Source: Gemmatimonadaceae bacterium (GTDB lineage Bacteria; Gemmatimonadota; Gemmatimonadetes; Gemmatimonadales; Gemmatimonadaceae). Taken from it: a stretch of DNA of 64,000 bases. Below the pieces are notes generated by a model. It saw only the letters and a program-made list of their open reading frames with translations, made no database searches and was not told the DNA's origin. Numbering within the stretch: the stretch's first letter is position 1; each line of letters begins with the position of its first letter. Below are positions 41,616 through 58,811 of the stretch, one piece after another. The position numbers and the translations under genes were made by a program. The DNA lies in the NCBI GenBank assembly GCA_045803545.1, contig JBJMOW010000002.1, positions 460,029 to 524,028 of the forward strand, given 5' to 3'.

Positions 41616-43504
41616 CAGAGCGCGACTCGGATCGGCTGGTTGAGATTGGTGGCGCGGTCGATCTGCTGGCGCGTGCGCGCGATCTCGCGCCCAGACTGAT
41701 CCTGGTGGATCAGGACGAACTCGAACTTGGTGATCTGGTCCGACTCACCCGCTCGGGCACCAGCTCCGAGCTGCGCCCCTGCCGGTCCACCACCGCCGCC
41801 GCCGCCGGATCCGGCACCCCCGCCGCCGCCGCCGCCGGCGATCCCGGCAACTACGCCCGCTTCGGTCGCGAACACTGCACCAGCTTCGAGGTGCCGCGCG
41901 CCGCCGGCGAAGTTGAGGTCCGCGAAGTCGCCGGCGGCGAGTGCGAACTGTTTAGCAGCCAGGCCCTCGAGGAGCTTTACTTCCGGATCCAGTGCGGCCC
42001 GGAGAAGTTGGCGGCCGAGATCCTTCCGGCTGTGAATGAGCGCGTTGCTCATGTTCGTCTCGACCGAGTAGATCAGGTCTGCCCGCTTCTTGATGACGTC
42101 GGCCTCTTTTTTCGCGTCCTTTTCTTTTTGCGTTAGCTGCTCCGCATCGAAGCGCTTGTTCTCAGCGCTGATTCGTCGATTCAGGGCCTGGACCGCGGCG
42201 ACTTCCTCATCATCGGCCTGTTTCTGCAAAGCCGCTTTGAGATCGTTCGAGATGTTCATCTCATCGATCTCCTTTCGCCTGACCTCGCGCTTTGCCTCAA
42301 TGACTGCGAGCTGCGAGAGCGCACCTGCCGGCGACGCGACATCCATCGCAGATGCTTTGGTCTCGAGCGTCCGGACGTTCAGGACATCGAGATCGCGGCG
42401 GGCTTTCTCATCATCCTTCATGCGGCGATCGAGAGCTGCGATCGCGGCCGAGCCCATTCTCACCGCCTCGTGCAGCTGCGCGAGTTCGGCGCCCTCGAGA
42501 CCTTTCTGTTGCTTCTCCTTCGGGAATAGCGCGCTATGGAGTTTGTCGATTTCGCTCCCCATACCAGCGCGGCCGGAGACATCCCATTTTGGAAGTTTGT
42601 CTAATGCTTCCTGGTCGGCCTTGAGTAGAGCGAGGCCGATGAGACGCTGCTCATGAGTGGCTTGGTGATGCGTTATGAGTGAGGCGAGGTCGGACGTGAA
42701 GGTCCGGTCCTGCGACTCTGTGCTCTTCGTGTAAAGAGCGTCGCGGTTCGCGATGGCAACGGCAAGGTCGTCGTTTGCCTTCGTCAAATTCGCCTTTAGA
42801 GTGTTCGTACTCCCCTGCGAGAACGGGTTGGCTAATGCTGCTTTCGCGCTCGCGACTTCCGCCTGCGCCGCCCCGACCGTCTGACCCTCAACGCCCCCGG
42901 CAAGTCTTTGGGCCTCCACCTCCCTCATCTTCTTGAGAAGGTCGTCTTGCGCCTTCTCCGCCTCGCGTGACGAGCTCGTAAATAGATCGTAGATCCCGAC
43001 GACTGCATCGATGCCCGCCAGGATAGCCGTGATCTCGATCGAGCCAATCGCAAACTTTCCAAGGCTCGTGACTAGGAGGCCGAGGGTCGAGTTGACGCCC
43101 AGCGTATGCTCGGCGAAGCTTGAGAGGCCCCGCTCCACGCGGCCCAGGGAAAGCGAGTGCTCTCCCAAGTGTCCGCTCGCTTCCGCGACCATCGCGGAAA
43201 AGAACCCCATGTTCTTGGTGCCGGCGACCGTCGCTACCGATTGTGATTTTATCCGGTCGTCGGTTCGGCTGATCGCGACCTCGAGCTTCAGCTGCTGCTC
43301 ATGCGTCGCTTTCGAAACGGTCAGATACTCGCGCGCTGCGTCCGCCGCTTTCTTCCACGTCTGGACGGCAATGTCGTTCGTCGTGTCGATAGCTTGCCCG
43401 AGCAGGCTGACTTCTCGAATCGTCGCGTTTATCGAACGCGAAACGTCCTTCGCGTCAGCGATTAGATCGACCGCTACTTGGGCTGCCGCCCCCGACAAAC
43501 TCAT
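41615..43504 (-). CDS. Tail tape measure protein
   Basis: Ala-rich helical 629 aa after the chaperone genes; Gly-rich C-terminus. Confidence 0.75.
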   Translation of the reverse strand: MSLSGAAAQVAVDLIADAKDVSRSINATIREVSLLGQAIDTTNDIAVQTWKKAADAAREYLTVSKATHEQQLKLEVAISRTDDRIKSQSVATVAGTKNMGFFSAMVAEASGHLGEHSLSLGRVERGLSSFAEHTLGVNSTLGLLVTSLGKFAIGSIEITAILAGIDAVVGIYDLFTSSSREAEKAQDDLLKKMREVEAQRLAGGVEGQTVGAAQAEVASAKAALANPFSQGSTNTLKANLTKANDDLAVAIANRDALYTKSTESQDRTFTSDLASLITHHQATHEQRLIGLALLKADQEALDKLPKWDVSGRAGMGSEIDKLHSALFPKEKQQKGLEGAELAQLHEAVRMGSAAIAALDRRMKDDEKARRDLDVLNVRTLETKASAMDVASPAGALSQLAVIEAKREVRRKEIDEMNISNDLKAALQKQADDEEVAAVQALNRRISAENKRFDAEQLTQKEKDAKKEADVIKKRADLIYSVETNMSNALIHSRKDLGRQLLRAALDPEVKLLEGLAAKQFALAAGDFADLNFAGGARHLEAGAVFATEAGVVAGIAGGGGGGGAGSGGGGGGGPAGAQLGAGARAGESDQITKFEFVLIHQDQSGREIARTRQQIDRATNLNQPIRVAL

Positions 43505-43896
43505 TTCCGCTCCTTTACCTTTTCCGCATCGATTCGGGCGTGCTCACTTGCGATTACGATCATGGCCTCGAGCAGCTGGGGATTTTCTCGGCCTGGCGGC
43601 CATTTACCCCAGCGTTCGACCACGCCATAGACGGTGAGCCACTGATTGATTTTCCTGTCCGCGAGCACCATGCTCCACGGGCAGCGCTTCGTTAGAAGCG
43701 GCCTTCTTTCCCGACCCAGTTCGATCCGATAGGTCGGGACTTTTTTTTCAGGACGCTCGTGACCCGCAATGCCGCAGGTGAGCTCGTCTCTTACTCGCTC
43801 GCTGCAGGTCCCGCAGTTGGGGGTGTATCGTCGTCCGTCCTTGGCTCCGATAGTGAAGCCTTGCCGTCCGATCCTGACGGCGGCTCGGAGTTTTTT
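43501..43896 (-). CDS. Tail assembly chaperone frameshift extension (gpT-like)
   Basis: -1 frame open from slippery A-AAA-AAC (43896-43890) to TGA at 43501, overlapping the TMP ATG. Confidence 0.8.
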   Translation of the reverse strand, partial: KKLRAAVRIGRQGFTIGAKDGRRYTPNCGTCSERVRDELTCGIAGHERPEKKVPTYRIELGRERRPLLTKRCPWSMVLADRKINQWLTVYGVVERWGKWPPGRENPQLLEAMIVIASEHARIDAEKVKERK

Positions 43897-44231
43897 TCCT
43901 GTTCCCCCGAAACGTTTACTTCGCTCATGAGCCCGTTGTAGATCGCGTTCCGTATCCCGGGTGGAATCGATCGGAAGTGTCGCGGATCCGAGTGATCGTA
44001 TGGCACTGGGCTACTGCCCTTCTGCCGCATCTGCATGCCTTCAATCCGAACGAGCTGCGCGCGAACGAGCTCCGTAGCGGCGGCGTTCTTTGCATCGTCG
44101 GTGGGAAAGGCATCGCGCCATTTGGACGCATCGACGATGTCGAGTGGCCGGACAACCGCGACCACGCCCGGAAATCCCGCTTCGTCGAGCGGGATCCGGA
44201 GCTCGTCCTCAAGTATTGGTAATGTGATCAT
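43791..44231 (-). CDS. Tail assembly chaperone (gpG-like)
   Basis: Between tail tube and TMP; contains the slippery site. Confidence 0.75.
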   Translation of the reverse strand: MITLPILEDELRIPLDEAGFPGVVAVVRPLDIVDASKWRDAFPTDDAKNAAATELVRAQLVRIEGMQMRQKGSSPVPYDHSDPRHFRSIPPGIRNAIYNGLMSEVNVSGEQEKNSEPPSGSDGKASLSEPRTDDDTPPTAGPAASE

Positions 44232-44238
44232 CGAACCT

Positions 44239-45231
44239 CTAATTCAGGAGGAAGCTGAACGCATCATTGGCCGCCGGCGTTGAGTCGTAGAGACCGCCCG
44301 AAAGTTTGATCAGCTGCGTGCCGGCATCGTCACTCTTGGCAACGTCTTCGATGCGTGCATTCGGAGCCGACCACGTGCACTTGTTGTATTGGGTGGCTCC
44401 GATCGTGAATGAGAGCGCGTTCACTGCATTCGTCAGCTGCAGGTTCTCGAAATCCTTGGTTCCGACGAGCTCATCCTCGAGCACGATCTCGAACGTGATC
44501 TTGCGTGTCCGGATACGATGCGTGGCCAAACCGCCGGGGGCATTCGCATTCTTGCGCTGCGCGATTTGGTTTCCGGTTGACATTCTGAAGCTGCGGATGA
44601 TTCCCGCCGAGAACCCGGCAATCGAGAGCGCAATGTTGTCAGCTACCGGTGGAACGGCAGTGCCGTAGCTCGATGCAACGATGGTCGGGACTGCGGCGTC
44701 GGTCGGCGCCTGGTAGAGTCCAGTGCGCTTCAGTGAAGCGACGAGCGGACCGCCGGCGTCAAGCGCGAATTCGATCTCGGCCTTGGCGCCAAGAATCTTG
44801 TACAGCTTGCCGTCGACGTAGTAGTACTCGGTTGCACCGAGCAGCCCCGTCGAGGCCGGCTTGTATGTGTATGACTCGGAGCCCCCGGTCGTGACCAGCG
44901 TCGACGAACAGCCGGCGGCGATCATGTAGGGGTGGAGCTCCGGCGTCGCAGCCGGGGTGGCTGCATAAGCGATTGTCGTCCGATTCCCGCGGAAGTGAAC
45001 CGTGTTCGGCCAGGTCGCCATTCTGCCTTTGGGCGAGAGCGGTGGCGAGGCTTGAATCGCGGCGCCGTCGATCAGCTTGTCGCGCGGCGTCTTGAATGCG
45101 AACGAGCCGTTCGCTTCGAGCGGTTCCAGGATCTGGATCGCATCGTTCGCGACCACGGGGACAGCATCCGTTCCGTCGGTCGTCTCGGCTTTCGCCAGGA
45201 GTACGCCAATTACTGAATTGCGATCAGACAT
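44239..45231 (-). CDS. Major tail tube protein
   Basis: LLAKAETTDGTD N-terminus; position; Thr/Ala/Gly-rich. Confidence 0.75.
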   Translation of the reverse strand: MSDRNSVIGVLLAKAETTDGTDAVPVVANDAIQILEPLEANGSFAFKTPRDKLIDGAAIQASPPLSPKGRMATWPNTVHFRGNRTTIAYAATPAATPELHPYMIAAGCSSTLVTTGGSESYTYKPASTGLLGATEYYYVDGKLYKILGAKAEIEFALDAGGPLVASLKRTGLYQAPTDAAVPTIVASSYGTAVPPVADNIALSIAGFSAGIIRSFRMSTGNQIAQRKNANAPGGLATHRIRTRKITFEIVLEDELVGTKDFENLQLTNAVNALSFTIGATQYNKCTWSAPNARIEDVAKSDDAGTQLIKLSGGLYDSTPAANDAFSFLLN

Positions 45232-45424
45232 CGTTCGACTCGGTTATGACCGACTCCTCGTCGGTGTCAGGTTGTGGTGCTAGAATCGGGAGCCCTGCGG
45301 CTTCGCGTTGTGCGCCCGTTAGTTCGCTTTCATGGATCCGTCTACCATCACCGAAATCGATGAAGAGGCCGCCACGCGGATCTGCGGGATAATCCTTTGG
45401 TTTGTCGCTCACGGATTTCTTCAT
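45224..45424 (-). CDS. Small hypothetical protein
   Basis: Overlap coupling on both sides. Confidence 0.5.
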   Translation of the reverse strand: MKKSVSDKPKDYPADPRGGLFIDFGDGRRIHESELTGAQREAAGLPILAPQPDTDEESVITESNDV

Positions 45425-45954
45425 GGCGCGAGATCTCTGACTGTGAGTGTGAATTCGACGGCGCCGGTCATGACGCCGCTCGATTGCGGTTGATTGGTCG
45501 GCCCGTACTTAAGCGTCGACGATTTGAAGATCTTGAATCCGTTCCGAGAACCAGCCGTGTCGCGTTTGCCGGCGGCGAGCAATCCCCTGGCGATCGATCG
45601 GACGATTGCCCGTAGCGAGTAATCGGTATCGCGCTCATTTCTGAACACGTGGCCGGATTCGGTGACGTATGCGATGATCACATCGACGTCGAAATCCCGG
45701 ATACCGCTCCATACCTGGCCCTGGGCACTGCCAGGCTTGGCGACGTCGACGACGACGAGCGGGAAAGACGTATCGACTTCCCTCACTGTGGGATCGGTGT
45801 CGACCGCGTTTCGGACAGTGACGTGGCCGGGACGGTCGTCTGGCGAGGATCCGCCGTTTGGCGTATCCATCGCGAGCAGATCGATCTGCGCGTTCGCCCC
45901 GAGCGTAGCGTCGTTGAGCACGGCTTCGACCATGCGAAGAGTCTCGATGATCAT
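45421..45954 (-). CDS. Tail terminator-like protein
   Basis: Position upstream of the tail tube gene; FPLVVV strand. Confidence 0.55.
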   Translation of the reverse strand: MIIETLRMVEAVLNDATLGANAQIDLLAMDTPNGGSSPDDRPGHVTVRNAVDTDPTVREVDTSFPLVVVDVAKPGSAQGQVWSGIRDFDVDVIIAYVTESGHVFRNERDTDYSLRAIVRSIARGLLAAGKRDTAGSRNGFKIFKSSTLKYGPTNQPQSSGVMTGAVEFTLTVRDLAP

Positions 45955-47282
45955 TAGAAGGGCATCGGCGCTGCGATGGCTTGGTAGATCCGGTCGCCGA
46001 AATAGTCATCGCCAGACTGCGTCGGATGAATGCCGTCGCTACCCGTTAAGAGGTCGGCATTCCCACTTCCGGTCGTAGCACCGACCTTACCCGTACCGGT
46101 GATGAATCCCAGCGTGTTCGCAACCGCGCTTGCCGAGACAATGGGATCGATAAAGAGATTCGGCCCGTTTGGGTCGCCAGCTAGGAGCGCAGCCTTCAAA
46201 GCATCGCGCATCGAAACCTGAAACGACGTCGGTGTCCCCGACGCAATCAGGTCTCCGATCACAATGAGTTTGACATAGGGAAGCGCTGCTCTGATCTGCG
46301 CATAGAGCGTCGTCGCTTCCGCCTGGATCTGCGCAGCACTAAAAGCGGAATCGTTGCCGCCGCCCTGAATAACGACAATCTCGGGCGAGTTGTTGATGAC
46401 GTCGGTGACGACGCGTGACCTGAACGTCGGCTGAGTGACATTGAGGTAGCCAGCCCCGCCGATGCCGGAAGTCCAGGCATCGCGTGACCAGCCGAGCAGT
46501 TTCGTCGCCCGATCGACGAAGCCACTGATCTGCGCCGTCGCTCCCGTGCCATTTGTCTTGGAGTCGCCCATCCAGATCGAGCGCGGACCATCAGGGAGAC
46601 TCGATGGCCAGAGTGTGTCGTTGGGACCGACGTTGAAGCCGCGGAATCCGCACTGGTTCGTGAGCTCGATCCGGATACGGCGGACAGCGCGGACGCCGCT
46701 GAAGTCCACCTTCTGCCAGTAGAGCGCGCCATCACCCGGAGGGCCAATGGTCGGAGTCGATGAGACGTACTGGCCGTCAACGAGGATTCGGAATGCAGCG
46801 TTACCCGAGATGCCGCGGGTGCCGAACTCGAAGACCGATCCGTCGAACATGGACTCGACGAACATGTTGCCGCCAGCCAGCGCGTTACAGTTGAACGAGC
46901 AGACCGTGAGCAGCGCGTTCGCCGCCTGCGAGACGACGTCCACCTTTCCGCCGGAGTACTTCCACGGAACAGCGGTGTTCTTGATCCACGTGCCGCTGCT
47001 GTTAACCGTGGCAGCCGTTGCGACCGCGCTAGCAATTGTACTCGCCGCGTTCGCCGTTCCCTGCGTCACGGTCGGCGGGGTCGCCATCGCTGGCGGGAGC
47101 CCGATCAGCCGCTGCATCGCGGGGAACGGTTGCATCGTTCCGAACTTGCTCGTCGCGAGTCTCCGCACGTCGAGCGACACGATCATGTCGCGGAAATCCT
47201 GCGCCGAGATCGAGCCGTCGGCCTGGCCGTCCTGAAAGAGCTGCGAGAGCAGTACGGCGATCTCGCGAAGTGTGTCAGGCAT
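45954..47282 (-). CDS. SGNH/GDSL hydrolase, probably virion-associated
   Basis: GDS, GIGGAGY, GGGND, DGIHP blocks. Confidence 0.85.
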   Translation of the reverse strand: MPDTLREIAVLLSQLFQDGQADGSISAQDFRDMIVSLDVRRLATSKFGTMQPFPAMQRLIGLPPAMATPPTVTQGTANAASTIASAVATAATVNSSGTWIKNTAVPWKYSGGKVDVVSQAANALLTVCSFNCNALAGGNMFVESMFDGSVFEFGTRGISGNAAFRILVDGQYVSSTPTIGPPGDGALYWQKVDFSGVRAVRRIRIELTNQCGFRGFNVGPNDTLWPSSLPDGPRSIWMGDSKTNGTGATAQISGFVDRATKLLGWSRDAWTSGIGGAGYLNVTQPTFRSRVVTDVINNSPEIVVIQGGGNDSAFSAAQIQAEATTLYAQIRAALPYVKLIVIGDLIASGTPTSFQVSMRDALKAALLAGDPNGPNLFIDPIVSASAVANTLGFITGTGKVGATTGSGNADLLTGSDGIHPTQSGDDYFGDRIYQAIAAPMPF

Positions 47283-47620
47283 TATGCGAAGGCCGGACTA
47301 AAGGCCGAGGTGCAGATGTGCGGATACGGATACTTGACGAGGTAGAGCTGAACGATTCCGCCGTCGCCAATAACTAGAGGATCGCGCACCTTCATCACTG
47401 CACCTGCGGCGGTGACTGTGTCGCCTCGCTTGGGCATTGGATTGAACGCGTTGTACGGGATCTCGAGCAGCGTGACGCGATCGACGACGTCGACGTAGCC
47501 CGCGGCGAGAGAATCTCTTTGATCGTAGGTGCTATCGATCGCCTTCACCGTGACCCCGTTGAAAACGAGATCCACGCCGAAGTCGCCGAAGAACGCAGAG
47601 AGATCCGAGTCGCCGAACAC
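47282..47620 (-). CDS. Head-tail joining protein (FII-like)
   Basis: DLSAFFGDFG, PKRGDTV, DGGIVQLYL; position. Confidence 0.65.
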   Translation of the reverse strand: MFGDSDLSAFFGDFGVDLVFNGVTVKAIDSTYDQRDSLAAGYVDVVDRVTLLEIPYNAFNPMPKRGDTVTAAGAVMKVRDPLVIGDGGIVQLYLVKYPYPHICTSAFSPAFA

Positions 47621-47627
47621 GATTCAT

Positions 47628-47894
47628 TTACCGACGTCGGATAGTGCGAGGGTCGCGCTGCTCGACTATCGGATCTCGCTGCTCGGGTTGCGCGACGTCC
47701 TCGTCGAAGACAGGATCCGCACGATTGGTGTCGATCAGCTGCTGCGCGATCGCAACGGGCAGATCGTGCGGGCCGCCTTCGAGGTGGTTGCCGTCGGGAC
47801 CCTGAACACCGAAGCCCGGCCGCAGCTTGACCTTCACCGTTCCGGTGATTTTCTCACCGCGAAGGTTCATCACCGTGTATTGATGCTGACTCAC
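47628..47894 (-). CDS. Small post-capsid protein
   Basis: DLPVAIAQQLIDTNRA motif; overlap coupling. Confidence 0.55.
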   Translation of the reverse strand: MSQHQYTVMNLRGEKITGTVKVKLRPGFGVQGPDGNHLEGGPHDLPVAIAQQLIDTNRADPVFDEDVAQPEQRDPIVEQRDPRTIRRR

Positions 47895-48136
47895 GAATCC
47901 GCCTGGATCTCGGGTGAGACTTCTTTGCTCTCGGTGATCTCGGCGGGTGCCGGCGTCTCCGGACGAATGATCCGGACGCGGTTTCGGTGTTCCTCTTCGC
48001 GCGCGAGATCTTGGTCGAGCTCCGCTTCCTGGCCGCTTTCGTAGGTCTCGGTCACAAGCTCGCCTTCCTCGGAGACGTGCGTCACCTGGAAACCGAAGAT
48101 CACCTTCACCTGAACTCTTTCTTTTACCTCTGACAT
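47891..48136 (-). CDS. Small acidic post-capsid protein
   Basis: GGAG RBS; YESGQEAELDQDLA. Confidence 0.55.
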   Translation of the reverse strand: MSEVKERVQVKVIFGFQVTHVSEEGELVTETYESGQEAELDQDLAREEEHRNRVRIIRPETPAPAEITESKEVSPEIQADS

Positions 48137-48151
48137 CAGTTGCTCCGTGGT

Positions 48152-49237
48152 TTACGCCAGCGCGTCTTTGGAAATGGCGAAGGCCTGCGGGTGTCTCACA
48201 GCGACGTCGATCAGTTGATACGACGTGAATTCGATCATGCCCTGCTTCTTCAACCGGAACGGATCCGCGACGATCTCGAACGCGCCCCAGAAGCCGATGA
48301 TCACTTCCGACATCGCGCCGAAGATGATCGGGTGGCAGACGGCGCCCGAGGTGCCCTTGACGAGATTCTTCGGGAGTTGGTTCGAAACGAGGACCGGGTA
48401 GTCGTTGATCGACTGATCTCCGTCGAGGATGAACCAGCCAGAGGTCGTCTGGCGATCGGTGATGCGCCAGCGGTCGCGAATCTCCGGGGTCGTGACGTAA
48501 GCCATCGTGTCTAGGTCGACGTCACCGTCAGCGACAGCGACGGTCTTCTCGAACGACGTCGTCTGGGGCCACGTCGCGATCTGCCCGTTCGTGCCGAGCG
48601 CGATCGGGTTCGTGTTGGCCTGATTGAGGAGCCCGGTCGGCTGACCCGAAGCGCCTGATCCGTTCAAGGCCGCGAGATCGATCGTTGATGCGTGGACGCG
48701 AACGAGATCATTTCTCACGAGCTCGTCGACGGACGTTGAGACTTGCGACTGAGCGAGCAGCTGACGGGAGAACGAGGTCGTCCCGATTAACTCCTTTGGC
48801 GCCATCGCCACCGAGTTGAGCAAGAGATTCGTGTCGCTGACGTCGGCGCCCGGGTTCTGCGTGCTCCAGGAAGCGGTAGCGACGCCGTTCCCTCGCGGGA
48901 TCGCGAGATCTCCGGTCAGGCCTTCGAGGACCGTAGCGCCCGCGCGAATCACGATCGCGCGCTTTCTCAGCGCGTCGATGAACGTCCTCGCCTGCGTGAA
49001 CTTGAGCTCCTGACCTTTCGTCGACGTCGCCGTGTCCAGCCCTGCGCGCATCGACATCGAGTAAGGAACGAGGAGCCCGCCGTGCTGGGGAGTGCGAGTT
49101 TTGGCGAGCTCGTCGGACACCTCGAACGCGAGCCCTGACTTCGCCCGCTTCCGCTCCGGATCATCTGCGAGCTGAGCGAGCGCGTCACCTAGACGGTATT
49201 CGCGCTCTTCTCTCGCGTTCAGTGTGGTGTCCGACAT
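48152..49237 (-). CDS. Second HK97-fold capsid protein (paralog of the major capsid domain)
   Basis: Colinear with the C-terminal half of 49335-51461: RAGLD.ATSTKG.ELKFT, SRQLLAQ, NGSGAS.QPTG, RLKKQGMIE, KDALA. Confidence 0.9.
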   Translation of the reverse strand: MSDTTLNAREEREYRLGDALAQLADDPERKRAKSGLAFEVSDELAKTRTPQHGGLLVPYSMSMRAGLDTATSTKGQELKFTQARTFIDALRKRAIVIRAGATVLEGLTGDLAIPRGNGVATASWSTQNPGADVSDTNLLLNSVAMAPKELIGTTSFSRQLLAQSQVSTSVDELVRNDLVRVHASTIDLAALNGSGASGQPTGLLNQANTNPIALGTNGQIATWPQTTSFEKTVAVADGDVDLDTMAYVTTPEIRDRWRITDRQTTSGWFILDGDQSINDYPVLVSNQLPKNLVKGTSGAVCHPIIFGAMSEVIIGFWGAFEIVADPFRLKKQGMIEFTSYQLIDVAVRHPQAFAISKDALA

Positions 49238-49334
49238 GAAATCGTTGAGTGAGTAGTGAGGTGAAACGGCGTGGAACGGAGTGGGGATGCGGCGCGCCTC
49301 TTACCTCACGCCGCACCACTCACTCAGTTGGCGA

Positions 49335-51461
49335 CTAGGCCAGCGCGTCCTTCATCGCCGAGAACGCGGCGGCGTACTTGACGGCGATTCCGTACATGGC
49401 GAAGGAGGTCACTTCGATCATGCCCTGTTTCTTCAGGCGATACGGATCGACGATGAGCTCCATCATTCCCCAGTCACCGACGACGGCCTGACTCCAGGCG
49501 CCGAAGATGATCGCCAAGCAGATACCGCTCGACGAACCCTTGGTGAGGTTGTTGGGGACCTGGGCGGACACCCAGCCCGGGTAACCATTGATCTCGCCTG
49601 GAACGCGTGCGCCGAGACCCTGAACCGCTCCGGTTCCGAGAACGTTGGCGTCCGACTTCTGCCACACCGGAATGCCAACGGTGTTGGAGAGCACCTGCGC
49701 TTTCTTGAACGTGCCGCGCGTGGTCGGGTGCACCATGTACGCGCACGGCCACTGATCAGCGTTCGCAGCTGCGACCTGAGTTTCCAGATCGACGAGGTGC
49801 GTGTACGCCGGCGTCAGGCCGTTCGTGCCGCCGGCGACGGAACCGATACCTGACGTATTCAGGATTCCGGTCGGCTGGTTCGACGCGCCGGAGCCGTTGA
49901 TGACGGCGAGATCGAGCGCGATCGCGTTGACGCGCGCCAGATCGTTACGCACAATCGAATCGACGTCGACCACCGCCTGCGCGAGCAGCTGCCTCGAGTA
50001 GGAGGTCGAAGCCTGGATCGACTTCGGGTTGAGCGCGATCTGAGTCAGCGTCAGGTTGGAATCCGCGACGTCAGATCCGGGGTTTTCAGCGACCCACGTT
50101 GCGGTTGCGGCACCGTTCTGGGCCGGGAAGGCAACCGGACCCTGGAGACCCGCCATCAGGGTGACGCCGGCGTCGAACGCTGCCATCTTGTTGCGCAGCA
50201 GCTCGAGGAAATCACCGGGCACCGTGAACTTGAGCTCGAGACCCTTGGTGGAAGTCGCCGAGTCCAATCCAGCGCGTTGCTCCATCGGCCAACCGTTCTG
50301 GCGAGCCATGATCTCCCGCGCTCTCGCTTCCGAGGTGAAGGTCGGAACGAGGATTCCGCCATTCCGCTTGATTCCCTGTGGGACTTTCTTCTCCAGGTCC
50401 TGGGCGATCTCGCGCTCGAATGACGCATCGACTTTCTTGCCCATCACGTCTTCGGCGTGCGCGAGAATCGCCCGCTGGAAGGAGTATTGCTTCCGCTCCT
50501 TGTCGGTGAGCTCGACAGCCGGCTTCCCTGTCGGTGCGCTGGCATCGCCGCGCTCCTGGAGCTCGCCCAGGATCGAAGCGGCCGCGGAGTCGAGCGTGCG
50601 TCCCTCTTCGATCCACGTCGCCACTTTCTCGGCGGGGATCTTGTGCTTGGTGGCGAGTGAGCGGATTTCGTTCACTCGCTTGCGCTCGGCTTTGACGGCC
50701 TCGTCGCGATCCGCGACGGTGATCGCGGAGGGTTTGGATTCGGCCCCGTTATTCTCGGTAGCCGCGTTTGCTCCTGACATCGGATTGCTCCTGGCGGTGG
50801 CCTTCGGGGCCGTGATTGTGAGGTGAGGGAAGTGCTTGCGGAGCGCGGCGATCGCTGTCTCCGTGTCTTCGGGCGGCGCGTCCCCCGCGCTCCTGCCCAC
50901 GCCCACCGTGACATCGGCGGGAACTGCAACGCTCGAGGCTTCCATTGGGAGCCAGCGAGTGACGCGAACTTCGGGAACCTTGTTCTCGCCTTCGACTTCG
51001 CGCGTTTCCGTCTCGAGGCAGCGGTAGCCGACCGAGATCCGCTTTCGGATCCCGTCGAGCATATCGCGCCGGAGATCCTGCGCGGTCGTTCGTTGGCTAT
51101 AGCGCACCATGCCGCGCATCACGCCGTCTTTGTCGACCGAGATGTCTTCGACGATTCCTTCCTGCTGTCTCGTGTCGTGGCCATCGAGGAAAGCCATTCC
51201 GTCCCTCGCATAGGAGAGATCGACGGCCTCCTTCGTGTGCACGAGCACTTCGTCGTAGAACTCGCCGTCCCACCAGCTGTAGCGCCGGACCGGCGTCTCG
51301 CTCGAGATCGCGATCGGGACTCGCTCGTCGACGGTGCCGTCAGCCGCGCGAGTCGCAGCGACCTGGGCGAGCTTCTCCCGATCGACGACGAAAAGCATGT
51401 CGCGGTAGAAGACCTCGGCCTTTCTTTTCTCTTCGGATTTCTGTTCGGACTTTGAAGCCAT
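49335..51461 (-). CDS. Prohead protease-scaffold-major capsid fusion
   Basis: Protease FLDGHD, ISVGY, EASSVAVPAD; coiled scaffold; HK97 capsid domain. Confidence 0.9.
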   Translation of the reverse strand: MASKSEQKSEEKRKAEVFYRDMLFVVDREKLAQVAATRAADGTVDERVPIAISSETPVRRYSWWDGEFYDEVLVHTKEAVDLSYARDGMAFLDGHDTRQQEGIVEDISVDKDGVMRGMVRYSQRTTAQDLRRDMLDGIRKRISVGYRCLETETREVEGENKVPEVRVTRWLPMEASSVAVPADVTVGVGRSAGDAPPEDTETAIAALRKHFPHLTITAPKATARSNPMSGANAATENNGAESKPSAITVADRDEAVKAERKRVNEIRSLATKHKIPAEKVATWIEEGRTLDSAAASILGELQERGDASAPTGKPAVELTDKERKQYSFQRAILAHAEDVMGKKVDASFEREIAQDLEKKVPQGIKRNGGILVPTFTSEARAREIMARQNGWPMEQRAGLDSATSTKGLELKFTVPGDFLELLRNKMAAFDAGVTLMAGLQGPVAFPAQNGAATATWVAENPGSDVADSNLTLTQIALNPKSIQASTSYSRQLLAQAVVDVDSIVRNDLARVNAIALDLAVINGSGASNQPTGILNTSGIGSVAGGTNGLTPAYTHLVDLETQVAAANADQWPCAYMVHPTTRGTFKKAQVLSNTVGIPVWQKSDANVLGTGAVQGLGARVPGEINGYPGWVSAQVPNNLTKGSSSGICLAIIFGAWSQAVVGDWGMMELIVDPYRLKKQGMIEVTSFAMYGIAVKYAAAFSAMKDALA

Positions 51462-51471
51462 CCGATCCCCG

Positions 51472-51605
51472 GAAAACGAAAAGCGGCCCCCAGATCTCCG
51501 AAGAGATCCGAGAGCCGCTGTGAGCGGTGCTATGAGTTGTGGCGCTGCTTTGGTACTACCGACTGCTTACAACTTCAGTGTACAACGGTGTCTGCGGACG
51601 CGCTA
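51472..51605 (-). promoter_or_regulatory. Promoter-leader-terminator cassette A (before capsid)
   Basis: TAGCGC-N17-TACACT-GAAGT; ACAACTCA..GCACCGCTCAC; AGCGGC..TTCG..GCCGCT hairpin; TTTCGTTTTC. Confidence 0.8.
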
Positions 51606-51614
51606 CCGCCCGAA

Positions 51615-53108
51615 TCAGGAGGCTTGGAGCATCCTGGGCTTTTCTTTCTTCGGCGCCGGCGGCTGATTCCCGTTCTCATCGAGCGGTTCGGCATTGTCCT
51701 GCTTGGCGCCGATACCACCGATATAGACGCCGGCCTTCTCGGCGATTTCGTTCTCGCGTTTGAGATCGGCGATCAGATCTTCGAAGTCGCGACCCATCTC
51801 GGCACAGAGCTGCTGCCGCGAGGTGAGACCCAGGGCGAGCATCATTTCGTTGGCCCTCGCATCATTGTAGGGATCGACCCACTTCCAGCCGCGGCCCTTC
51901 CAGTCGACGTCGGTCCAGCGTTCGGCGATGCGCGATGGCAGCGAGAGGTAAGGCGTTAGGATCGCCATGTCGAGCCACGCGGCGAAGACGATGCGGTGCA
52001 CGTGCTCTGCGAACCAACCATGCAGCCGGCGCCAGAAATCGCGCTCCGACAATAGACCCGCTCGGATCGAGGAGTAGCTGGTTTCCTCGAGATCTCCGGT
52101 CAATGTCGTGTACGCTAAGCCGAGTCCGCCGGCGATCGTCCGGAGCATCGCTTTCAAGAAGGAAGCGAATTGCGCGTTTGGGTGCTGCGGATCCCACGGC
52201 GTGAACTTGTAGCCAGGAGGCGCCTGATCGATCGAGCCAGGCGCGACGTCCATCACGATCTTCTCGTTCGGCGCCGGCAGCTCGAACGCTGCGAATGCGT
52301 CGGGGATCGTTTCGAAGAAGCCCATCTTCGAAGCTGCGATACGAGCTGCCGTGACTTCGGCGTCCTCGTAGGCGCCCAGCATCTTCAGTCGGAAAATGAC
52401 CGGCGTGAGCCACGACACTCCTCGAGCCTGCTTGGCGCGCTTCCGCTTGAAGAGATGAATTATCTCCTCGGCGGGGATTCGGACTCTCTCGCGGCGGCCG
52501 GCTTCCGCCGGGTGAATCGTCCAGAAGTGATAGGCGACCGGTGCGCCCCATTTGTCGATCTCGACGCCCATCCAGATCTGGTTGCCGTTCTCCATGCGCT
52601 CGACGTTGAACTGCGAGTCGAGCAGGTCCGGATCGATCAGCTCCAAAGCGAAGCCGTACTTGTTGCGGAAGCCGGAGTGCTTACGGATGAACACTTCGCC
52701 GTCGACGACCAGGCTTTCGATGATACGGTCCTGGATGTCGACAAATGACATCGTTCGATCGACGCTCGCAGACTCGGGGTGCGACCAATCCCGCCACGCT
52801 TCGACGAGAGCCTTGTTGGCCTTCTCGGCCGGCGCGCCATCAGCTCCCTTGTTCCGCGGGTGCGGCGTTATGCCCGTTTCGCCGACGACGTTGCTGATGA
52901 ATTCGCGGACCGCCGCGTTGACTACGGGGTCGTCGCGGTAAAGAGCTCGAGCGCGGCGACGGAGCTCCCGAATGTCGGCGCGCGTTTCCTGATTGCCCGA
53001 TGCCGATGAGAGTCGCCAATCGGCCGAGAGTCGATCGACCATCGCGCCTTGCGCAAAGGCCCGCTTCCCGCGGCCGCCGGTTGCCGCGGCTGCAAAGGGA
53101 TTAGCCAT
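51615..53108 (-). CDS. Portal protein, lambda family
   Basis: LRRRARALYRDD, MGVEIDKWGAPVAYHF, RGVSWL, SYSSIRAG, WVDP. Confidence 0.92.
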   Translation of the reverse strand: MANPFAAAATGGRGKRAFAQGAMVDRLSADWRLSSASGNQETRADIRELRRRARALYRDDPVVNAAVREFISNVVGETGITPHPRNKGADGAPAEKANKALVEAWRDWSHPESASVDRTMSFVDIQDRIIESLVVDGEVFIRKHSGFRNKYGFALELIDPDLLDSQFNVERMENGNQIWMGVEIDKWGAPVAYHFWTIHPAEAGRRERVRIPAEEIIHLFKRKRAKQARGVSWLTPVIFRLKMLGAYEDAEVTAARIAASKMGFFETIPDAFAAFELPAPNEKIVMDVAPGSIDQAPPGYKFTPWDPQHPNAQFASFLKAMLRTIAGGLGLAYTTLTGDLEETSYSSIRAGLLSERDFWRRLHGWFAEHVHRIVFAAWLDMAILTPYLSLPSRIAERWTDVDWKGRGWKWVDPYNDARANEMMLALGLTSRQQLCAEMGRDFEDLIADLKRENEIAEKAGVYIGGIGAKQDNAEPLDENGNQPPAPKKEKPRMLQAS

Positions 53109-53370
53109 TTCGTTTTCTGGTCAGTGCGTACAGTCCGTCTGTAGCGATGCGGCCGATGAACCTCCAGCCACAGAGCGAGATCAGCAGTACGCCGGTCGAA
53201 GCCAGCCACAATGCGTGACGGCGAGCGGGCAGGAGCTCGACCACGCTTGCGGTGAGCAAGAACCAGCCGACCAGGATCGCAAGCGAAACCGCAAACTCTC
53301 CCGGATACTTGCTGATGAAATCCGCGATCCAACGCGTTATCCGAGCGGCCTGCGCGCGAAACCTGTTCAT
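53101..53370 (-). CDS. Small two-TM protein
   Basis: Hydrophobic; overlaps both neighbours. Confidence 0.55.
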   Translation of the reverse strand: MNRFRAQAARITRWIADFISKYPGEFAVSLAILVGWFLLTASVVELLPARRHALWLASTGVLLISLCGWRFIGRIATDGLYALTRKRNG

Positions 53371-54002
53371 GAATTAAGTGCCCTATACCAGGGTGGAAGA
53401 ACGACGGGCTCGCTCGTACCGATCGTGCCGTCGGGATTCATCATGACGGCGAGCACGGAAGGCCCGAGCGAGCCTTGGTTGCGGAGGCGATAAACTTTCG
53501 CCTGGTAGATTGCGCGCAGATTGACGAGATCCTTGAGCGGAGTCTTTGCGATCGATCGACCGCTGATCGCGTAGCTCTCGTGCGTGCTGCCGTTGCCGAC
53601 GATTCGCGCTTCGATCTCTGCCTCGAGCTTGGCCAGGACGCGCTCGACATGTGAGACCGCCGAAGCATCGGCAACTGCGGTCAGGTTGAGGACAATCGTG
53701 AAGACGCCCTGCTCGACGGTGTAATGTTGTCCGGCGTATGCGCCGGATCCGTCGACAAAGGATTGCCATTGATAGGCGCCGGAAGCGAGGAGAGCAGTTT
53801 TTGCCTTTGCGACGGTGACACTGTAGACCGACCCGCTCGAGCTGACGGTGACATCAGCGTTCGCGAGAACCGATTGCCCCCGGATCGCGTAGCCCAATGT
53901 CCAGCCTTCCGAAGGCGGGTAATTGGATAGCGTTTTAGTCCACGACCAGGTGTCGCCGGCGACGAGGACCTGGGGCTCTGACTGTGGGACTACTGGCGGC
54001 AT
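53367..54002 (-). CDS. Head completion protein (gpW-like C-terminus with an N-terminal beta domain)
   Basis: ESYAISGRSI..LKDL..LRAIY; between terL and portal. Confidence 0.65.
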   Translation of the reverse strand: MPPVVPQSEPQVLVAGDTWSWTKTLSNYPPSEGWTLGYAIRGQSVLANADVTVSSSGSVYSVTVAKAKTALLASGAYQWQSFVDGSGAYAGQHYTVEQGVFTIVLNLTAVADASAVSHVERVLAKLEAEIEARIVGNGSTHESYAISGRSIAKTPLKDLVNLRAIYQAKVYRLRNQGSLGPSVLAVMMNPDGTIGTSEPVVLPPWYRALNS

Positions 54003-54011
54003 TCAGTTCCC

Positions 54012-54129
54012 GAAAACGAAAACGGCCCCGATCTCCGCTGAGAGACCGAGGCCGTTGTGAGCGGTGCTGTGAATTGTGACGGGTTCGCTACCCTGACTTC
54101 AGTATTGTCGCGAGCGCCGAGCGACGCAA
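54012..54129 (-). promoter_or_regulatory. Promoter-leader-terminator cassette B (before gpW/portal)
   Basis: TTGCGT-N17-AATACT-GAAGT; ACAATTCA..GCACCGCTCAC; ACGGCC/GGCCGT hairpin; TTTCGTTTTC. Confidence 0.8.
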
Positions 54130-54130
54130 G

Positions 54131-56074
54131 CTAGTCGTTCTTCCACTTATTCACCCAGTTGCGGTTGCCAGGCCGCTTGAAGGGTGCGAGTGGATCGTCT
54201 TGCGCCACGTTCGCTTGCGGCTTCTTCCATTCCGATAGCGCCTTGGCTCTCGCCTCGAGACTGTCGATTATGCTCGGGCCCAGCGCGTGGAGACCGCCGA
54301 GCGCGTACACGTAACCGTCGATCTCCTCGTTCGGTCCGGTCCGGACCCAGATTCCTTTCGGCCGGCCGTTCACGATCTTCCGCATCAACTTCTCGTTCAT
54401 GAACTGCTCGACACGAGCTCGGTCGATGTCGTGCGGGATCCAGATGTAGAACGGCTTACGCTCTCCTGGCTCCGGCCGCTTCACCTTGAGCAGCCGCTTC
54501 ATCAGCGCTTCTTTGCCCGTGTAGCTCCCGATTTGGTAGGTAACGATGCGTTGCGTCTTGTGACGCTTGGGGGGCGACACGATCGGAACGCCTTCCTGGA
54601 GCGAGGATCCCTTTACCGCGTAGACTTTGTACCGCGCGTGCTTCCTCGCGAAGTCGTAGACCTGCTGCGCGTGGTGTCCGCCGGCGTCGATAAACGTTAT
54701 CGAAACGCTCATCGGAGCTCCGGATTCGTGCGTGTATGGTTTCAAAATGATTCGACTCAGCTCGTCCCAGGGATCCTTGGTTGCCGGATCGCCAGGAATC
54801 ATCTCGAAGTCGGTGCGCCATGCCTCCTCTCGGTGACCGAATCCCCACACGAATGTCTCGAGGCGATCGCCCTGGACGTCGACCGAACGGATAAGAACGC
54901 CGACACCGTGCGGAACGATGGGTTGCGGGTCGTCCGGATCCGGACCTCGAGGGAAGATCGTCTTGTGTGAGTCGAGCACTCCGTCGTCCAGCTGCTCGCC
55001 GCCTTCGACCCAGAAATCGCAGAGTATCGTATTGATGAAAGCCTGCAGCTTGAGTGGATCCTCTTTGTCGCGGAGAAATCGCGCGACCAGGTCGCTCCAA
55101 CGGAAGAACGGCGAATAGAGAGCAGAGATCCTGAAACCAGGAATCGGCGAGTCCGGATTCTGAGCGATCCAGCGGCCGCGCTTTAGCATGAGCATCTTGT
55201 CAGCTTCTTCGATCAGCGAGCTGCACGCGATGCAGACGTAGTGAGCGGTCTCCGGCTTCCCCTCGTCCCACTTGAGCCCGTGTTTCGAATCGCGATCGCC
55301 GAACTCGAGTTTCTGTTCGTGGCTGCAGTGAGGGCAGGGGACGAAGTACTCGCGTTGATCGGATGCCTCATACGCCTTTCCGATCGGCCCATCTTCGACG
55401 GTGGGCGAGGATACGTCGATGATCTTTCTATTCGGAAACGTTGATGTGCGCGACTCGGAGATCCCGCGCGGATCGCCTTCGGCGCCGGCGGACGCGGCGT
55501 AGCGATCGATCTCGTCGCGGAGGAGTACTCGGATCGGCCGCGCTGCCAAACCAGCGGCACTATTTGACCCGACGATTGTCAAATGACCCCCCGCAAATGT
55601 CTTGTGGGTGATCGTGTTGCCAGAATCGCGGGATCTCGAGTCGGCGACTTTGCCTTTGAGTCGCGGCGTGTCGCGCAGCATTGGAGCCAGCCGATCTTTC
55701 GACCACGCCTCCGCCATTTCCTTCGTCGGCTGCAGCATCAGGATCGGCGACGGATCCTGATCCATATAGTAGCCGGCGACGTTGTTGAGCGTCTCCGTCT
55801 TCCCGAGCTGCGAACCCCACATGCCGACGACGTGCGAGAACTTCGGGTCGCCGCACACATCCATGAATTCTTTCTGATACGGTGCATCGTCCGACGAATA
55901 TGGACCGGCGCGGAACGATGATTCCGGCGAGAGCATCCGGTATCGATCGGCCCATTGCGACACGGTGAGGCGAGGCGGCGGCTTTAGTCGCTCGTAGAGA
56001 ATTTTGCGCTCGAGCGCGGCGAGCTTGGAGCTCCGGGTGCGGCCGTGTTTAGTCTTTCCTGGTAACTCGGTCAT
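54131..56074 (-). CDS. Terminase large subunit, lambda gpA family
   Basis: SQWADRYR, SQLGKTE, DEIDRY, SSPT, YFVPCPHC, VDVQ, IDAGG. Confidence 0.95.
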   Translation of the reverse strand: MTELPGKTKHGRTRSSKLAALERKILYERLKPPPRLTVSQWADRYRMLSPESSFRAGPYSSDDAPYQKEFMDVCGDPKFSHVVGMWGSQLGKTETLNNVAGYYMDQDPSPILMLQPTKEMAEAWSKDRLAPMLRDTPRLKGKVADSRSRDSGNTITHKTFAGGHLTIVGSNSAAGLAARPIRVLLRDEIDRYAASAGAEGDPRGISESRTSTFPNRKIIDVSSPTVEDGPIGKAYEASDQREYFVPCPHCSHEQKLEFGDRDSKHGLKWDEGKPETAHYVCIACSSLIEEADKMLMLKRGRWIAQNPDSPIPGFRISALYSPFFRWSDLVARFLRDKEDPLKLQAFINTILCDFWVEGGEQLDDGVLDSHKTIFPRGPDPDDPQPIVPHGVGVLIRSVDVQGDRLETFVWGFGHREEAWRTDFEMIPGDPATKDPWDELSRIILKPYTHESGAPMSVSITFIDAGGHHAQQVYDFARKHARYKVYAVKGSSLQEGVPIVSPPKRHKTQRIVTYQIGSYTGKEALMKRLLKVKRPEPGERKPFYIWIPHDIDRARVEQFMNEKLMRKIVNGRPKGIWVRTGPNEEIDGYVYALGGLHALGPSIIDSLEARAKALSEWKKPQANVAQDDPLAPFKRPGNRNWVNKWKND

Positions 56075-56595
56075 GCCGCATCGTCGCCGGCATCGAGCTC
56101 GTCGAGCTCAGGATCCTCGTCCTCGATTTCCTGTGCGGTGCCCTGCAGCGCGCGAAGCAGCTCGTCGCGTATCTGCTCGCCGACAGCCTGCGCCTCGAGA
56201 TCGGTCCGCGTCACCTGGATTCGCGACAGGAACTTGGATGGCACTGTCATCAGCACCGCGCGCAGTCGATCGCAAATTCCGCCGACTCGCTTCTCGTGCA
56301 CGTCGAAAGGAATGAGCCGGCCATCGGCTTCCTCGACCTCGATCTCCGCCTTCCGAACTTCGGCGACGAATTTCCGCTTCCGGAGATCCTTGAGATCATC
56401 CTCGGGCTGTTTCTTTCGCTCCTGCGCGCGGATATATCCGTCGTACCAGACGCGCGACTCAGGCCATGGATGCGTTGCCTTCGCGCCCTCGCCATCCTTC
56501 GGCAATCCTTCGAAAACGAGATTCCGAACGTGACGCGTTGTGATTCCTAGGCGCTCAGCGAGCTCCTTCTGCGAGATCGACTTGGAACGAGACAC
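56071..56595 (-). CDS. Terminase small subunit (Nu1-like)
   Basis: N-terminal wHTH SQKELAERLGITTRHV..GLP; coiled coil; upstream of terL. Confidence 0.85.
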   Translation of the reverse strand: MSRSKSISQKELAERLGITTRHVRNLVFEGLPKDGEGAKATHPWPESRVWYDGYIRAQERKKQPEDDLKDLRKRKFVAEVRKAEIEVEEADGRLIPFDVHEKRVGGICDRLRAVLMTVPSKFLSRIQVTRTDLEAQAVGEQIRDELLRALQGTAQEIEDEDPELDELDAGDDAA

Positions 56596-56641
56596 GAATC
56601 ACGAGAGGCGGAAGGGAAATGCGACTTTGAAAAGTCTGGCG

Positions 56642-56696
56642 CTAGCAAAATGGCGAGCTGGCGCGTGACCCTCATTAGAACCCTTGGGAAGGACCC
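56642..56696 (-). other. Putative cos site (cosQ/cosN-like)
   Basis: GGGTCCT (same as lambda cosQ) then GGGTCACGCGCCAGCTCGCCATTTTGCTA, just upstream of terS. Confidence 0.6.
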
Positions 56697-56714
56697 AAAG
56701 TCTTGCTCGCGCGC

Positions 56715-57245
56715 TCATGCACGCACCAACGGTGTGTCACTGAACACGCGCCACTGGCGCGCTTCAACGAGATCAGTAATGAAGACCTGCGTGATCTCAA
56801 CACCCCACGGTGCGAGCCGCTTGGACATGAGAGCCGCGAGCTCGGCCTGCACCTCATCGCGCCTTTCCGTTAGATCGGTCCAGCTACGCTTGGTGCATTC
56901 TGTAGCGAGATAGCCAATGGCCATGTTGGTGACGCTTTGATTGATGTTCGACACCGCCGCCCAGAGCGTCTGGATGCTGAGAACGCGATACGCGATGTTC
57001 GCTGATACGGCGATGCTCTTACCATCGGACGTGGTCACAGCAGCAGTGGGCAGATCTATGGTCTGCTCGGTGGAGTAAGCGGTGTACACTTCCTCGAGCA
57101 CCGGCCATCGCATGTGCAGGCCGGGCTTCAGCTCTCTTCGCAATTGCCCACCGCGGAGCAGTAGACCCTGCTGCCAGCCGTACACACGTGAGATGGGCCA
57201 GATCGCTTTGAGATTGGCGATGATGAAGTTGATGAGCGCCTGCAT
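56715..57245 (-). CDS. SPFH/band-7 domain protein
   Basis: LKPGLH..WP, TIDLP..VTTSDG..I.VSA.IAYRV, WGVEI..V.ITD. Confidence 0.8.
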   Translation of the reverse strand: MQALINFIIANLKAIWPISRVYGWQQGLLLRGGQLRRELKPGLHMRWPVLEEVYTAYSTEQTIDLPTAAVTTSDGKSIAVSANIAYRVLSIQTLWAAVSNINQSVTNMAIGYLATECTKRSWTDLTERRDEVQAELAALMSKRLAPWGVEITQVFITDLVEARQWRVFSDTPLVRA

Positions 57246-57884
57246 CTAACGCGCACTCGCCATTGCTTCATTAAATCGCTGCTCGAAACTCTTCGCCCAC
57301 AGCTTCTCGACCGCTTCTCTGAACGTGGCTTCGAAATGAAGATTCGCGGGGATCGGCACCTGTGGCGTGAGCCAATAGAGGAGGATGTAGTCGCGCGGGC
57401 CCGGGCCGGTGCGCTGGAAGATTCCCTCGCGTCCGCTTCGCGTCTTCATTAGAAACGAGCGCTGATCGCCGCGCGTGGCCTTGCCAACCGCATGCAGATG
57501 CAGGTTCTTGGGACGCAGCTCCGGAGGTACGACTCCACCTCTTCCCGGCCGCGCCAGGATCGGGATCGCGATATTGCGGCCGGTGCGTGAGGTCTTGATG
57601 CCACCAGGCTCGAACTTGTTCATGAAGTCCGCTTTGTCGCCCACTTGGATGCGCGTGTAGATCGGGTTATCGCGCTTGGTCGAGAAGTGCGTGATCTTCA
57701 CCGATTCCTGCAGCACCCACGGCCGCCTGATCGTGAAGTTCTGACGCTCGGCATTCCAGAGCATTTGCTGGCCAGCCTTCGCAACGTCGTTCGTTGCCTG
57801 CGAGGCAGCGAATGGGATCTGTTCTCTCTCGGCATCGGTGAAGACTTTCTTGAGAGCTTCGATGTCGCAGCGGATCTGAATCAT
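57246..57884 (-). CDS. Tail completion-like (gpZ-type) basic protein
   Basis: QIPFAASQATNDVA, GIFQRTG; ATG 57884. Confidence 0.6.
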   Translation of the reverse strand: MIQIRCDIEALKKVFTDAEREQIPFAASQATNDVAKAGQQMLWNAERQNFTIRRPWVLQESVKITHFSTKRDNPIYTRIQVGDKADFMNKFEPGGIKTSRTGRNIAIPILARPGRGGVVPPELRPKNLHLHAVGKATRGDQRSFLMKTRSGREGIFQRTGPGPRDYILLYWLTPQVPIPANLHFEATFREAVEKLWAKSFEQRFNEAMASAR

Positions 57885-58060
57885 GGGGATCCGTCCGCCT
57901 GGTCGAGAGCCGTCGCAGCTTCTGAATCGGGTACCGTCCAGCCCTGCCACCGATACCAAAACCAGTATTCGAACGGGATTAGATCTCCGTCCTTTTCGAC
58001 TTCGACGCGGACCGGCCAGAACGGATCTGCGGTGCCGCCCGGGATCGTGACCTGCTTCAC
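57881..58060 (-). CDS. Small Trp-rich hypothetical protein (59 aa)
   Basis: GTGA/ATGA overlaps at both ends; below the ORF-track cutoff. Confidence 0.5.
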   Translation of the reverse strand: MKQVTIPGGTADPFWPVRVEVEKDGDLIPFEYWFWYRWQGWTVPDSEAATALDQADGSP

Positions 58061-58644: not shown

Positions 58645-58655
58645 GTGAGACCCCC

Positions 58656-58763
58656 GAAAACGAAAAACGCGGCTGACGTCCTTTAAGCTAGGACGCCGGG
58701 CCGCGTATGAGGCGTGTTGCTGGGTTGTCCCTATAGTTTATCGCCGCGCATCCATGGGGGCAA
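58656..58763 (-). promoter_or_regulatory. Promoter-leader-terminator cassette D (start of late region)
   Basis: TTGCCC-N17-TAAACT; ACAACCCA..ACGCCTCAT; ACGCGGC/GCCGCGT hairpin; TTTTCGTTTTC. Confidence 0.75.
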
Positions 58764-58811
58764 CGATACATGTGGTTACACCGTTGCGCCATCATGAGTT
58801 ACAGCGCGTGT

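Follow-up and report, generated by a model that had tools for sequence, protein, structure and literature searches.

Hexons and pentons of most tailed phages are formed by one protein, which raises the question of what roles are played by two capsid genes lying side by side in a small siphophage. Such a tandem arrangement was found in a prophage within a 64,000-nucleotide stretch of DNA from a member of the Gemmatimonadaceae (GenBank contig JBJMOW010000002.1; the whole stretch is called the window in the following), where a gene encoding a fusion of prohead protease, scaffold and major capsid protein (gene A) precedes a gene for a stand-alone capsid paralog (gene B). The original prediction of an intact, colinear 361-aa paralog behind the fusion was borne out, with both open reading frames (ORFs) located on the minus strand 97 nt apart, and the proposed 41.5-kb phage corresponds to the 41,539 bp found between 61-bp core repeats. 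A and B are the sole capsid genes of this genome and probably represent a hexon/penton pair, with A forming the hexons and B the pentons.

Capsid paralogs differing at the A-domain tip

In a BLASTP comparison, 160 of 396 positions are identical between A and B (40%, E 1e-90), with B being colinear with A residues 318–708, and the mature parts of both proteins are 45–49% identical. Both exceed the Pfam cut-off of 24.2 bits for Phage_capsid (PF05065; 119.6 bits for A and 94.8 bits for B) and match phrog_617 of PHROGs (E 5e-100 and 2e-54, respectively). The capsid domain of A begins at about residue 397, following a protease and a scaffold region. Only A matches Peptidase_S78, albeit weakly and below the Pfam cut-off (E 0.003); the His, Ser and Glu columns of this region, which we take to be the catalytic residues, are near-invariant across the A-type proteins. 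B lacks the protease and most of the scaffold, retaining the last scaffold part (64 aa) as a pro-piece together with the entire capsid domain, and in the eight B genes seen directly this pro-piece comprises 59–73 aa from the likely ATG. Three sequence motifs that the original prediction had quoted for the pair are present, but they occur family-wide and are not pair-specific. An assembly artefact is ruled out by orthologous pairs at other loci and by a contig from a public sequencing run that covers positions 49159–49391 across the A-B junction with zero differences; this run may be connected with the source sample of the window. A fusion of A and B by read-through or frameshifting is unsupported, since the frame relation of the two genes varies between loci.

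A and B are least alike in the A-domain helix and tip (identity 0.24, versus 0.45 overall), with high values for the P-loop (0.82) and the N-arm (0.67; compared with 0.59 between A and single-gene capsids and 0.56 between B and single-gene capsids). Between two anchors in the A-domain, A has 50 and B 31 aa. This anchor-to-anchor length amounts to 48–52 aa in 37 of 38 A-clade proteins and to 30–41 aa in all 323 others, with values of 30–38 aa in 34 B-clade proteins, so that the tip of the paralog is smaller than that of its partner. The additional segment of the A-type proteins is nearly constant in length and has a conserved Gln-Gly...Arg end. Since it is carried by none of the 323 other proteins nor by the capsid protein of roseophage vB_DshS-R4C (PDB 8GTA), the distribution indicates that about 18 aa were gained by A and that B retains the ancestral length. 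Hence, the difference of about 17 aa noted in the original prediction is real but reflects an insertion in A instead of a deletion in B, a loss by B being ruled out by the short length in the B clade, in all other capsids and in 8GTA.

As follows from the HK97 fold, an A-domain loop faces the capsomer axis. In line with the predicted location of the variable segment in the A-domain, the alignment places the insertion site, with an offset uncertain by 3 residues, in loop 202–218 of R4C, which is assigned to this domain in the R4C report (PMC10276861). In phage SPP1, the A-loop is described as closing the hexon centre and pointing inward in pentons (PMC6813328), and we regard it, by analogy rather than by alignment, as the likely equivalent of the loop bearing the A insert. 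B, in turn, is marked by an R-x-x-D-R motif (R258, D261 and R262) standing just before the insertion site of A; all 34 B-clade proteins have these three residues, which are found in at most 15% of A-clade and single capsids. Taken together, these patterns indicate that A and B are oppositely specialised at the A-domain tip.

The model of the mature part of A (predicted local distance difference test, pLDDT, 81.7) shows the HK97 fold, aligning with 9gyi over 242 residues (Z 20.8, root-mean-square deviation 3.0 Å) and with HK97 itself (1ohg) over 246 residues (Z 19.2, 3.8 Å), and has low confidence only at the insert middle (mature residues 215–220) and the N-arm. For B, the same fold is predicted from full-length homology to A and 8GTA. 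The R4C capsid protein is the nearest solved relative by sequence (E 1e-24 for A and 1e-18 for B) and the top Foldseek match of the A model. In contrast to the phage in the window with its two capsid genes, R4C has a single capsid protein, which lacks the A insertion and is reported to form 11 pentons and 60 hexons in a T=7 head (PMC10276861).

Distribution, phylogeny and covariation of the pair

From 276 fetched loci, 166 distinct first capsid sequences were obtained. Eight of these have the long A-domain segment and are followed by a second capsid gene (the window, L001, L005, L009, L032, L038, L087 and L176), three have a second gene but not the long segment (L014, L022 and L034, plus near-copies), and 118 have neither, with at least 1300 nt visible downstream, while 36 loci offer too little flank to be classified for the second gene; the single-gene classes include 5'-truncated fragments such as the B-clade locus L088. 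An intact paralog under selection thus stands directly downstream of the main capsid gene across the lineage, with L124 as the one exception, and the seven loci besides the window answer the concern that the paralog might be missing from relatives. Ten further A/B pairs, not directly seen, were deduced from the same source and equal size of the longest contig; 11 of 27 longest-contig sizes of B-clade entries match among 34 A-clade entries, compared with none among 85 other entries. Between the two capsid genes, L038 harbours an HNH endonuclease gene (L038:5347-6000) and L176 an Arg-rich ORF with Cys pairs (L176:6218-6670).

Outside these loci, the 73 cultured-phage records matched by B contain no two-capsid record, each giving one match, and 60 other genomes of host relatives show no match at all. 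Among 400 genomes of the phylum, 11 have a match and one carries the tandem pair, apparently at the same locus as L176 and therefore counted once. A degenerate A-specific DNA pattern retrieved four viral contigs, all bearing already-known pairs, and a search with the A-clade alignment revealed no additional A-clade locus within its 80 best matches. Stand-alone capsids of about 390 aa were also seen to form a clade (L100, L128, L129, L144, L180 and others), each being the sole capsid gene without a nearby S78 match; L180 lies within an Acidobacteriota genome.

In a tree of 361 sequences, calculated from 291 mature columns after removal of the insert columns, the insert-bearing A-type proteins form one clade (38 tips, support 0.99) and the B-type proteins another (34 tips, 0.996), and both were also obtained in a mixture-model quick tree of 59 rows (support 99 each). 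A and B distances track each other (Mantel rho 0.72 for the 8 direct pairs and 0.55 for 18 pairs), the basal A proteins P0153 and P0157 are paired with basal B proteins, and B evolves about twice as fast as A. The two clades are not joined as sisters in free trees, but their union is not rejected by the approximately unbiased (AU) test (p 0.72), the constrained tree being 12.95 lnL higher (37 rows, LG+G4). Origin by duplication in place is thus allowed by these results, and so is capture from another phage.

Purifying selection acts on B. For the three closest phages (the window, L001 and L005), dN/dS (Nei-Gojobori) is 0.14–0.20 for B and 0.13–0.17 for A, which rules out a pseudogene or a neutrally evolving copy, the latter having been named in the original prediction as a possible refutation. 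Against L087, values of 0.33–0.41 for B and 0.19–0.27 for A were calculated at a dS of 0.5–1.1, which is close to saturation. No gene conversion tract between A and B was detected in synonymous codons, and recent conversion is unsupported as well, with the longest exact A-B match spanning 11–26 nt and identical codons amounting to 44–55% within the same genome versus 43–52% across genomes. The pair is old, real and functional.

Moreover, A and B from the same genome are more alike than those from different genomes in distinct regions, with positive residuals in 17 of 18 pairs at the E-loop, 15 of 18 at the spine helix and 12 of 18 at the N-arm. These three of 12 tested regions pass the Bonferroni bound (p ≤0.001 for 18 pairs and 0.001–0.02 after thinning to 11–12 pairs). 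No such excess likeness was found at the A tip (6 of 18 positive residuals) or in the early A-domain. With covariation at the E-loop, spine helix and N-arm and none at the A tip, we read this as indicating that A and B are placed in one lattice with common inter-capsomer contacts and distinct capsomer centres.

Genomic context and expression signals

The features of the pair and of its surroundings are compiled in the following table. The late operon shows a lambda-like order of terminase, gpW-like connector, portal, A, B, two small ORFs, FII-like protein, GDSL-domain protein, major tail tube and probable tape measure, the last being assigned from gene position alone.

Features of the capsid gene pair and its prophage (window positions)
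Feature	Position	Strand	Basis
Gene A: prohead protease-scaffold-major capsid fusion, 708 aa (P0001), predicted hexon protein	49335..51461	-	phrog_617 E 5e-100; HK97 fold of modelled mature part
S78-type prohead protease domain of A, residues 69-184	50910..51257	-	weak Pfam match below cut-off; near-invariant His, Ser, Glu columns in A clade
Predicted maturation site R396/A397 of A	50271..50276	-	sequence; Arg near-invariant at scaffold/capsid junction
18-aa A-clade-specific insertion in A-domain loop, A residues 604-621	49599..49652	-	alignments; low pLDDT at mature residues 215-220; aligns within R4C loop 202-218
A-B intergenic region, 97 nt: stem-loop after A stop, no U-run, no Shine-Dalgarno before B	49238..49334	-	
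Gene B: stand-alone capsid paralog, 361 aa (P0002), predicted penton (vertex) protein	48152..49237	-	
B pro-piece, 64 aa, homologous to last scaffold subdomain of A (residues 318-396), ends at predicted cut R64/A65	49046..49237	-	
B-specific A-domain helix/tip motif, residues 251-270; R258, D261, R262 invariant	48428..48487	-	
Terminator-like hairpin + U-run immediately before A start	51472..51519	-	same element in L001, L005, L087; related copy before gpW at 54021-54056
Prophage with capsid pair: 41,539 bp, lambda-like gpA terminase + portal, integrated at tRNA-Ser	22238..63776	.	

In all 8 pairs, the stop codon of A has a stem-loop behind it (z −1.2 to −8.0), and that of B has none. As the original prediction had noted, the paralog has no clear Shine-Dalgarno (SD) sequence: B does not pair with the canonical anti-SD of the host and A pairs moderately (−5.7 kcal/mol). 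This feature, however, is not distinctive, with zero scores also in 4 of 18 other late genes and in a quarter or more of 642 long host ORFs (at approximate start positions), and it is weak evidence for low abundance and no proof of low B expression. A lower expression of B than of A nevertheless appears plausible. The hairpin with U-run before A is present in the window, L001, L005 and L087 and was not found in L032, L038 and L176, while some hairpin with T-run precedes the capsid gene in 26 of 97 family loci. In the window, a repeated leader with hairpin and U-run stands before the start codons of the capsid fusion and gpW (51469-51544 and 54009-54081, minus strand, 83% identical) and may serve as a signal for processing or attenuation of the late transcript.

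The core repeats at 22238-22298 and 63777-63837 delimit the prophage at tRNA-Ser. At the contig end (window 63777-64000; compare 22238-22461), the phage right end and core are followed by the phage left end again, as in an attP junction, and the end of contig C3 (113477-113682) shows phage right end, core and host DNA, corresponding to attR; both together suggest excised or tandem phage DNA in the sample. Adjoining attL, a 558-aa ORF (22383-24059, minus strand) resembles tyrosine integrases by eye, without a Pfam match at E 0.01. The following further genes, all on the minus strand, were observed: a tRNA-Gly(GCC) close to the repressor region (28812-28884), a glycoside-hydrolase gene close to the lysis region (33938-34978), an SPFH/Band 7 gene immediately before the small terminase (56715-57245), a gene for a 442-aa GDSL/SGNH hydrolase flanked by the FII-like gene and the next connector-region ORF (45954-47282; the hydrolase family is labelled 'head decoration' in PHROGs), and the gene for a 1371-aa tail protein (36633-40748). 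The domain at the C terminus of this protein is Hint/intein-like (weak Pfam match, E 0.006; ending in HN-IKPV) and possibly represents an autoprocessing module.

Predicted roles and comparison with known dual-capsid systems

If A forms hexons and B pentons, both would be made as precursors, B would enter the prohead via its retained 64-aa scaffold piece, and the protease of A would cut A and, in trans, B at R/AGLD. The extra loop of A would fill the wider hexon centre and fit the five-fold poorly, thereby locking in B as penton subunit; as a weaker corollary, the loop might exclude A from pentons and render B essential. Being located downstream of the post-capsid hairpin together with the head-tail genes, B would be made in smaller amounts, and it would occupy 11 pentons, corresponding to about 55:360 copies of B and A if the head is T=7 as in R4C. 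The penton interpretation of the original prediction is thus partly supported, by the A-domain location and by close published precedents, but not by the assumed polarity of the change or by the SD argument.

Several observations weigh against this assignment. Among the 166 capsid sequences, L124 has the long segment but no second capsid gene within 705 nt visible downstream, where a non-capsid ORF on the opposite strand, glycosyltransferase-like by eye, is found instead, which speaks against the lock-in step unless this locus is a remnant. P0137, a partial protein, falls into the A clade with a segment of 35 aa and no insert, and insert plus paralog trace back to a single evolutionary event instead of several. 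For B, the AlphaFold model has a pLDDT of 46.7, and B keeps the full N-arm and E-loop, unlike the trimmed vertex protein of Lactococcus phage Nocturne116. Hairpins (z < −2) also follow 52% of 88 single capsid genes, so that the post-capsid hairpin is ancestral. As regards covariation, the permutation p-values treat kin as independent, the N-arm signal depends largely on L032, and the spine-helix signal equally fits mixed capsomers, since the E-loop/spine contacts are described as intra-capsomer in mycobacteriophage Jabs (bioRxiv 10.64898/2026.07.24.740622). Finally, in a second tandem pair (L013-L016, L034 and L022), the first gene has no insert, and the close relatives L117 and L042/L133 have no second capsid gene, so that the paralog can be absent in that lineage.

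The copy in L014, L022 and L034 forms a long branch (0.65) inside a clade with the single-gene loci L117 and L042, which points to a separate, younger duplication. It has a GTG start with a good SD; a later A-domain loop has become shorter by about 11 aa, and a tail has been gained at the C terminus. The insert-free first gene of this second duplication fits the lock-in step if the copy is dispensable. It is conceivable, although we would propose it only tentatively, that a penton protein evolved twice, the two cases representing two stages: the hexon-centre loop deprived the main capsid protein of its capacity for penton formation and made the older duplicate essential, and in the younger, loop-free duplication the copy is still dispensable. 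If so, deletion of the loop from A would bypass B, providing a direct test of quasi-equivalence split between two genes.

With clearly lower probability than the hexon/penton assignment, B might co-assemble with A without being restricted to pentons, either as a minor component of mixed capsomers or of the surroundings of the portal, or by tuning the size or the shape of the head, such as prolate versus isometric. In favour of such a role, the covarying regions include the spine helix, which pairs with the E-loop within capsomers, all elements of B are full length, and the second duplication looks dispensable. Moreover, two of three published dual systems (T4 and Nocturne116) are described as prolate, and a satellite-encoded capsid paralog is reported to redirect the head shape of phi12. 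This phi12 paralog, however, is itself described as pentameric, and at the A-domain tip, which makes contacts within the capsomer, divergence is highest and covariation is lacking, which fits homo-capsomers. In addition, the 41.5-kb genome lies inside the range of 29–45 kb of 25 listed cultured single-capsid relatives.

It is improbable that a shell of a separate or alternative type (small heads, a surface variant or a conditional switch) is formed by B with the help of A's protease, or that roles are reversed with A in the pentons. These readings draw on B being a complete capsid protein that has a pro-piece of its own and invariant core glycines, on stand-alone capsids of about 390 aa serving as the sole capsid gene in many related loci, and on the faster evolution of B. 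However, all 8 pairs have a hairpin ahead of B, which lacks an SD in the window, protease and scaffold are carried by A, the long upstream gene makes the hexons in the published siphophage cases, and the A-B covariation implies shared contacts. Least probable is a B that is no virion part but an assembly chaperone or a decoy with a dominant-negative effect on satellites or superinfecting phages, for although the packaging of B is a prediction and its faster rate fits conflict-driven evolution, the gene belongs to the late operon, flanked by A and the head-tail genes, retains the predicted maturation site and the P-loop, co-diverges with A across the whole clade and is under purifying selection similar to that of A.

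The hexon/penton assignment of A and B can thus be compared with published systems; on this phage lineage itself, no paper was found in the open literature searched. Likened by its genes, the pair probably works like those of Nocturne116, Jabs and T4, with the hexon/penton role here being predicted. In the c2-like phage Nocturne116, ORF18 encodes the major capsid protein (MCP) and ORF19 a vertex protein found by cryo-electron microscopy in pentamers only, and the MCP fusion is cut between Arg and Ser at the scaffold/capsid junction (PMC13595954). As in the window, a small siphophage has a protease-scaffold-MCP fusion followed by a protease-free paralog with a shorter A-domain tip loop, although the cut of the fusion is predicted here. 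According to its description, the Nocturne116 vertex protein is a 220-aa protein, 24% identical to the MCP, with trimmed N-arm and E-loop and no scaffold piece, and the head is prolate with isopeptide crosslinks. B, in contrast, is 45–49% identical to mature A and keeps N-arm, E-loop and a 64-aa pro-piece, and the difference in tip length stems from a gain in A, unlike the shortened loop of the Nocturne116 vertex protein.

Jabs likewise has a long, processed capsid gene (MCPh, ORF72) followed by a shorter paralog (MCPp, ORF73), with a smaller axial domain in the penton protein and an extra element of the hexon protein at the hexon centre (bioRxiv 10.64898/2026.07.24.740622). As described there, it differs in its T=9 head, 18% identity, a disulfide network and an MCPp without pro-piece, and its hexon element is a C-terminal extension, whereas that of A is an internal loop. 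T4, the precedent named in the original prediction, still holds but is not the sole one, with the small siphophages Nocturne116 and Jabs of the same gene layout having been solved. Its gp23 and gp24 are adjacent paralogs, both trimmed by the prohead protease, and some gp24-bypass mutations map to the gp23 A domain (PMC9958956); T4 is, however, a large prolate myophage with separate scaffold and protease and an identity of about 20% between the two proteins.

A gp24-family profile did not match B, PHROGs giving only phrog_617 and phrog_10, and in the trees B nests among phrog_617-type capsids. Since B is placed within its own capsid family, an origin independent of the Nocturne116 vertex protein and Jabs MCPp can be inferred. 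The sources label both genes of the pair alike ('HK97 family phage major capsid protein'), and this shared capsid name suggests that dual capsid pairs are under-recognised. The Nocturne116 authors describe the benefit of two capsid proteins in a small phage as unclear (PMC13595954). At 18–24% identity, the known hexon/penton pairs are too distant to reveal the order of changes. With about 45% identity, the pair described here is less diverged, has many single-gene relatives and shows differences focused on the A loop and the three-residue motif of B, so that the origin of vertex proteins becomes approachable by a few loop-deletion and motif-swap experiments.

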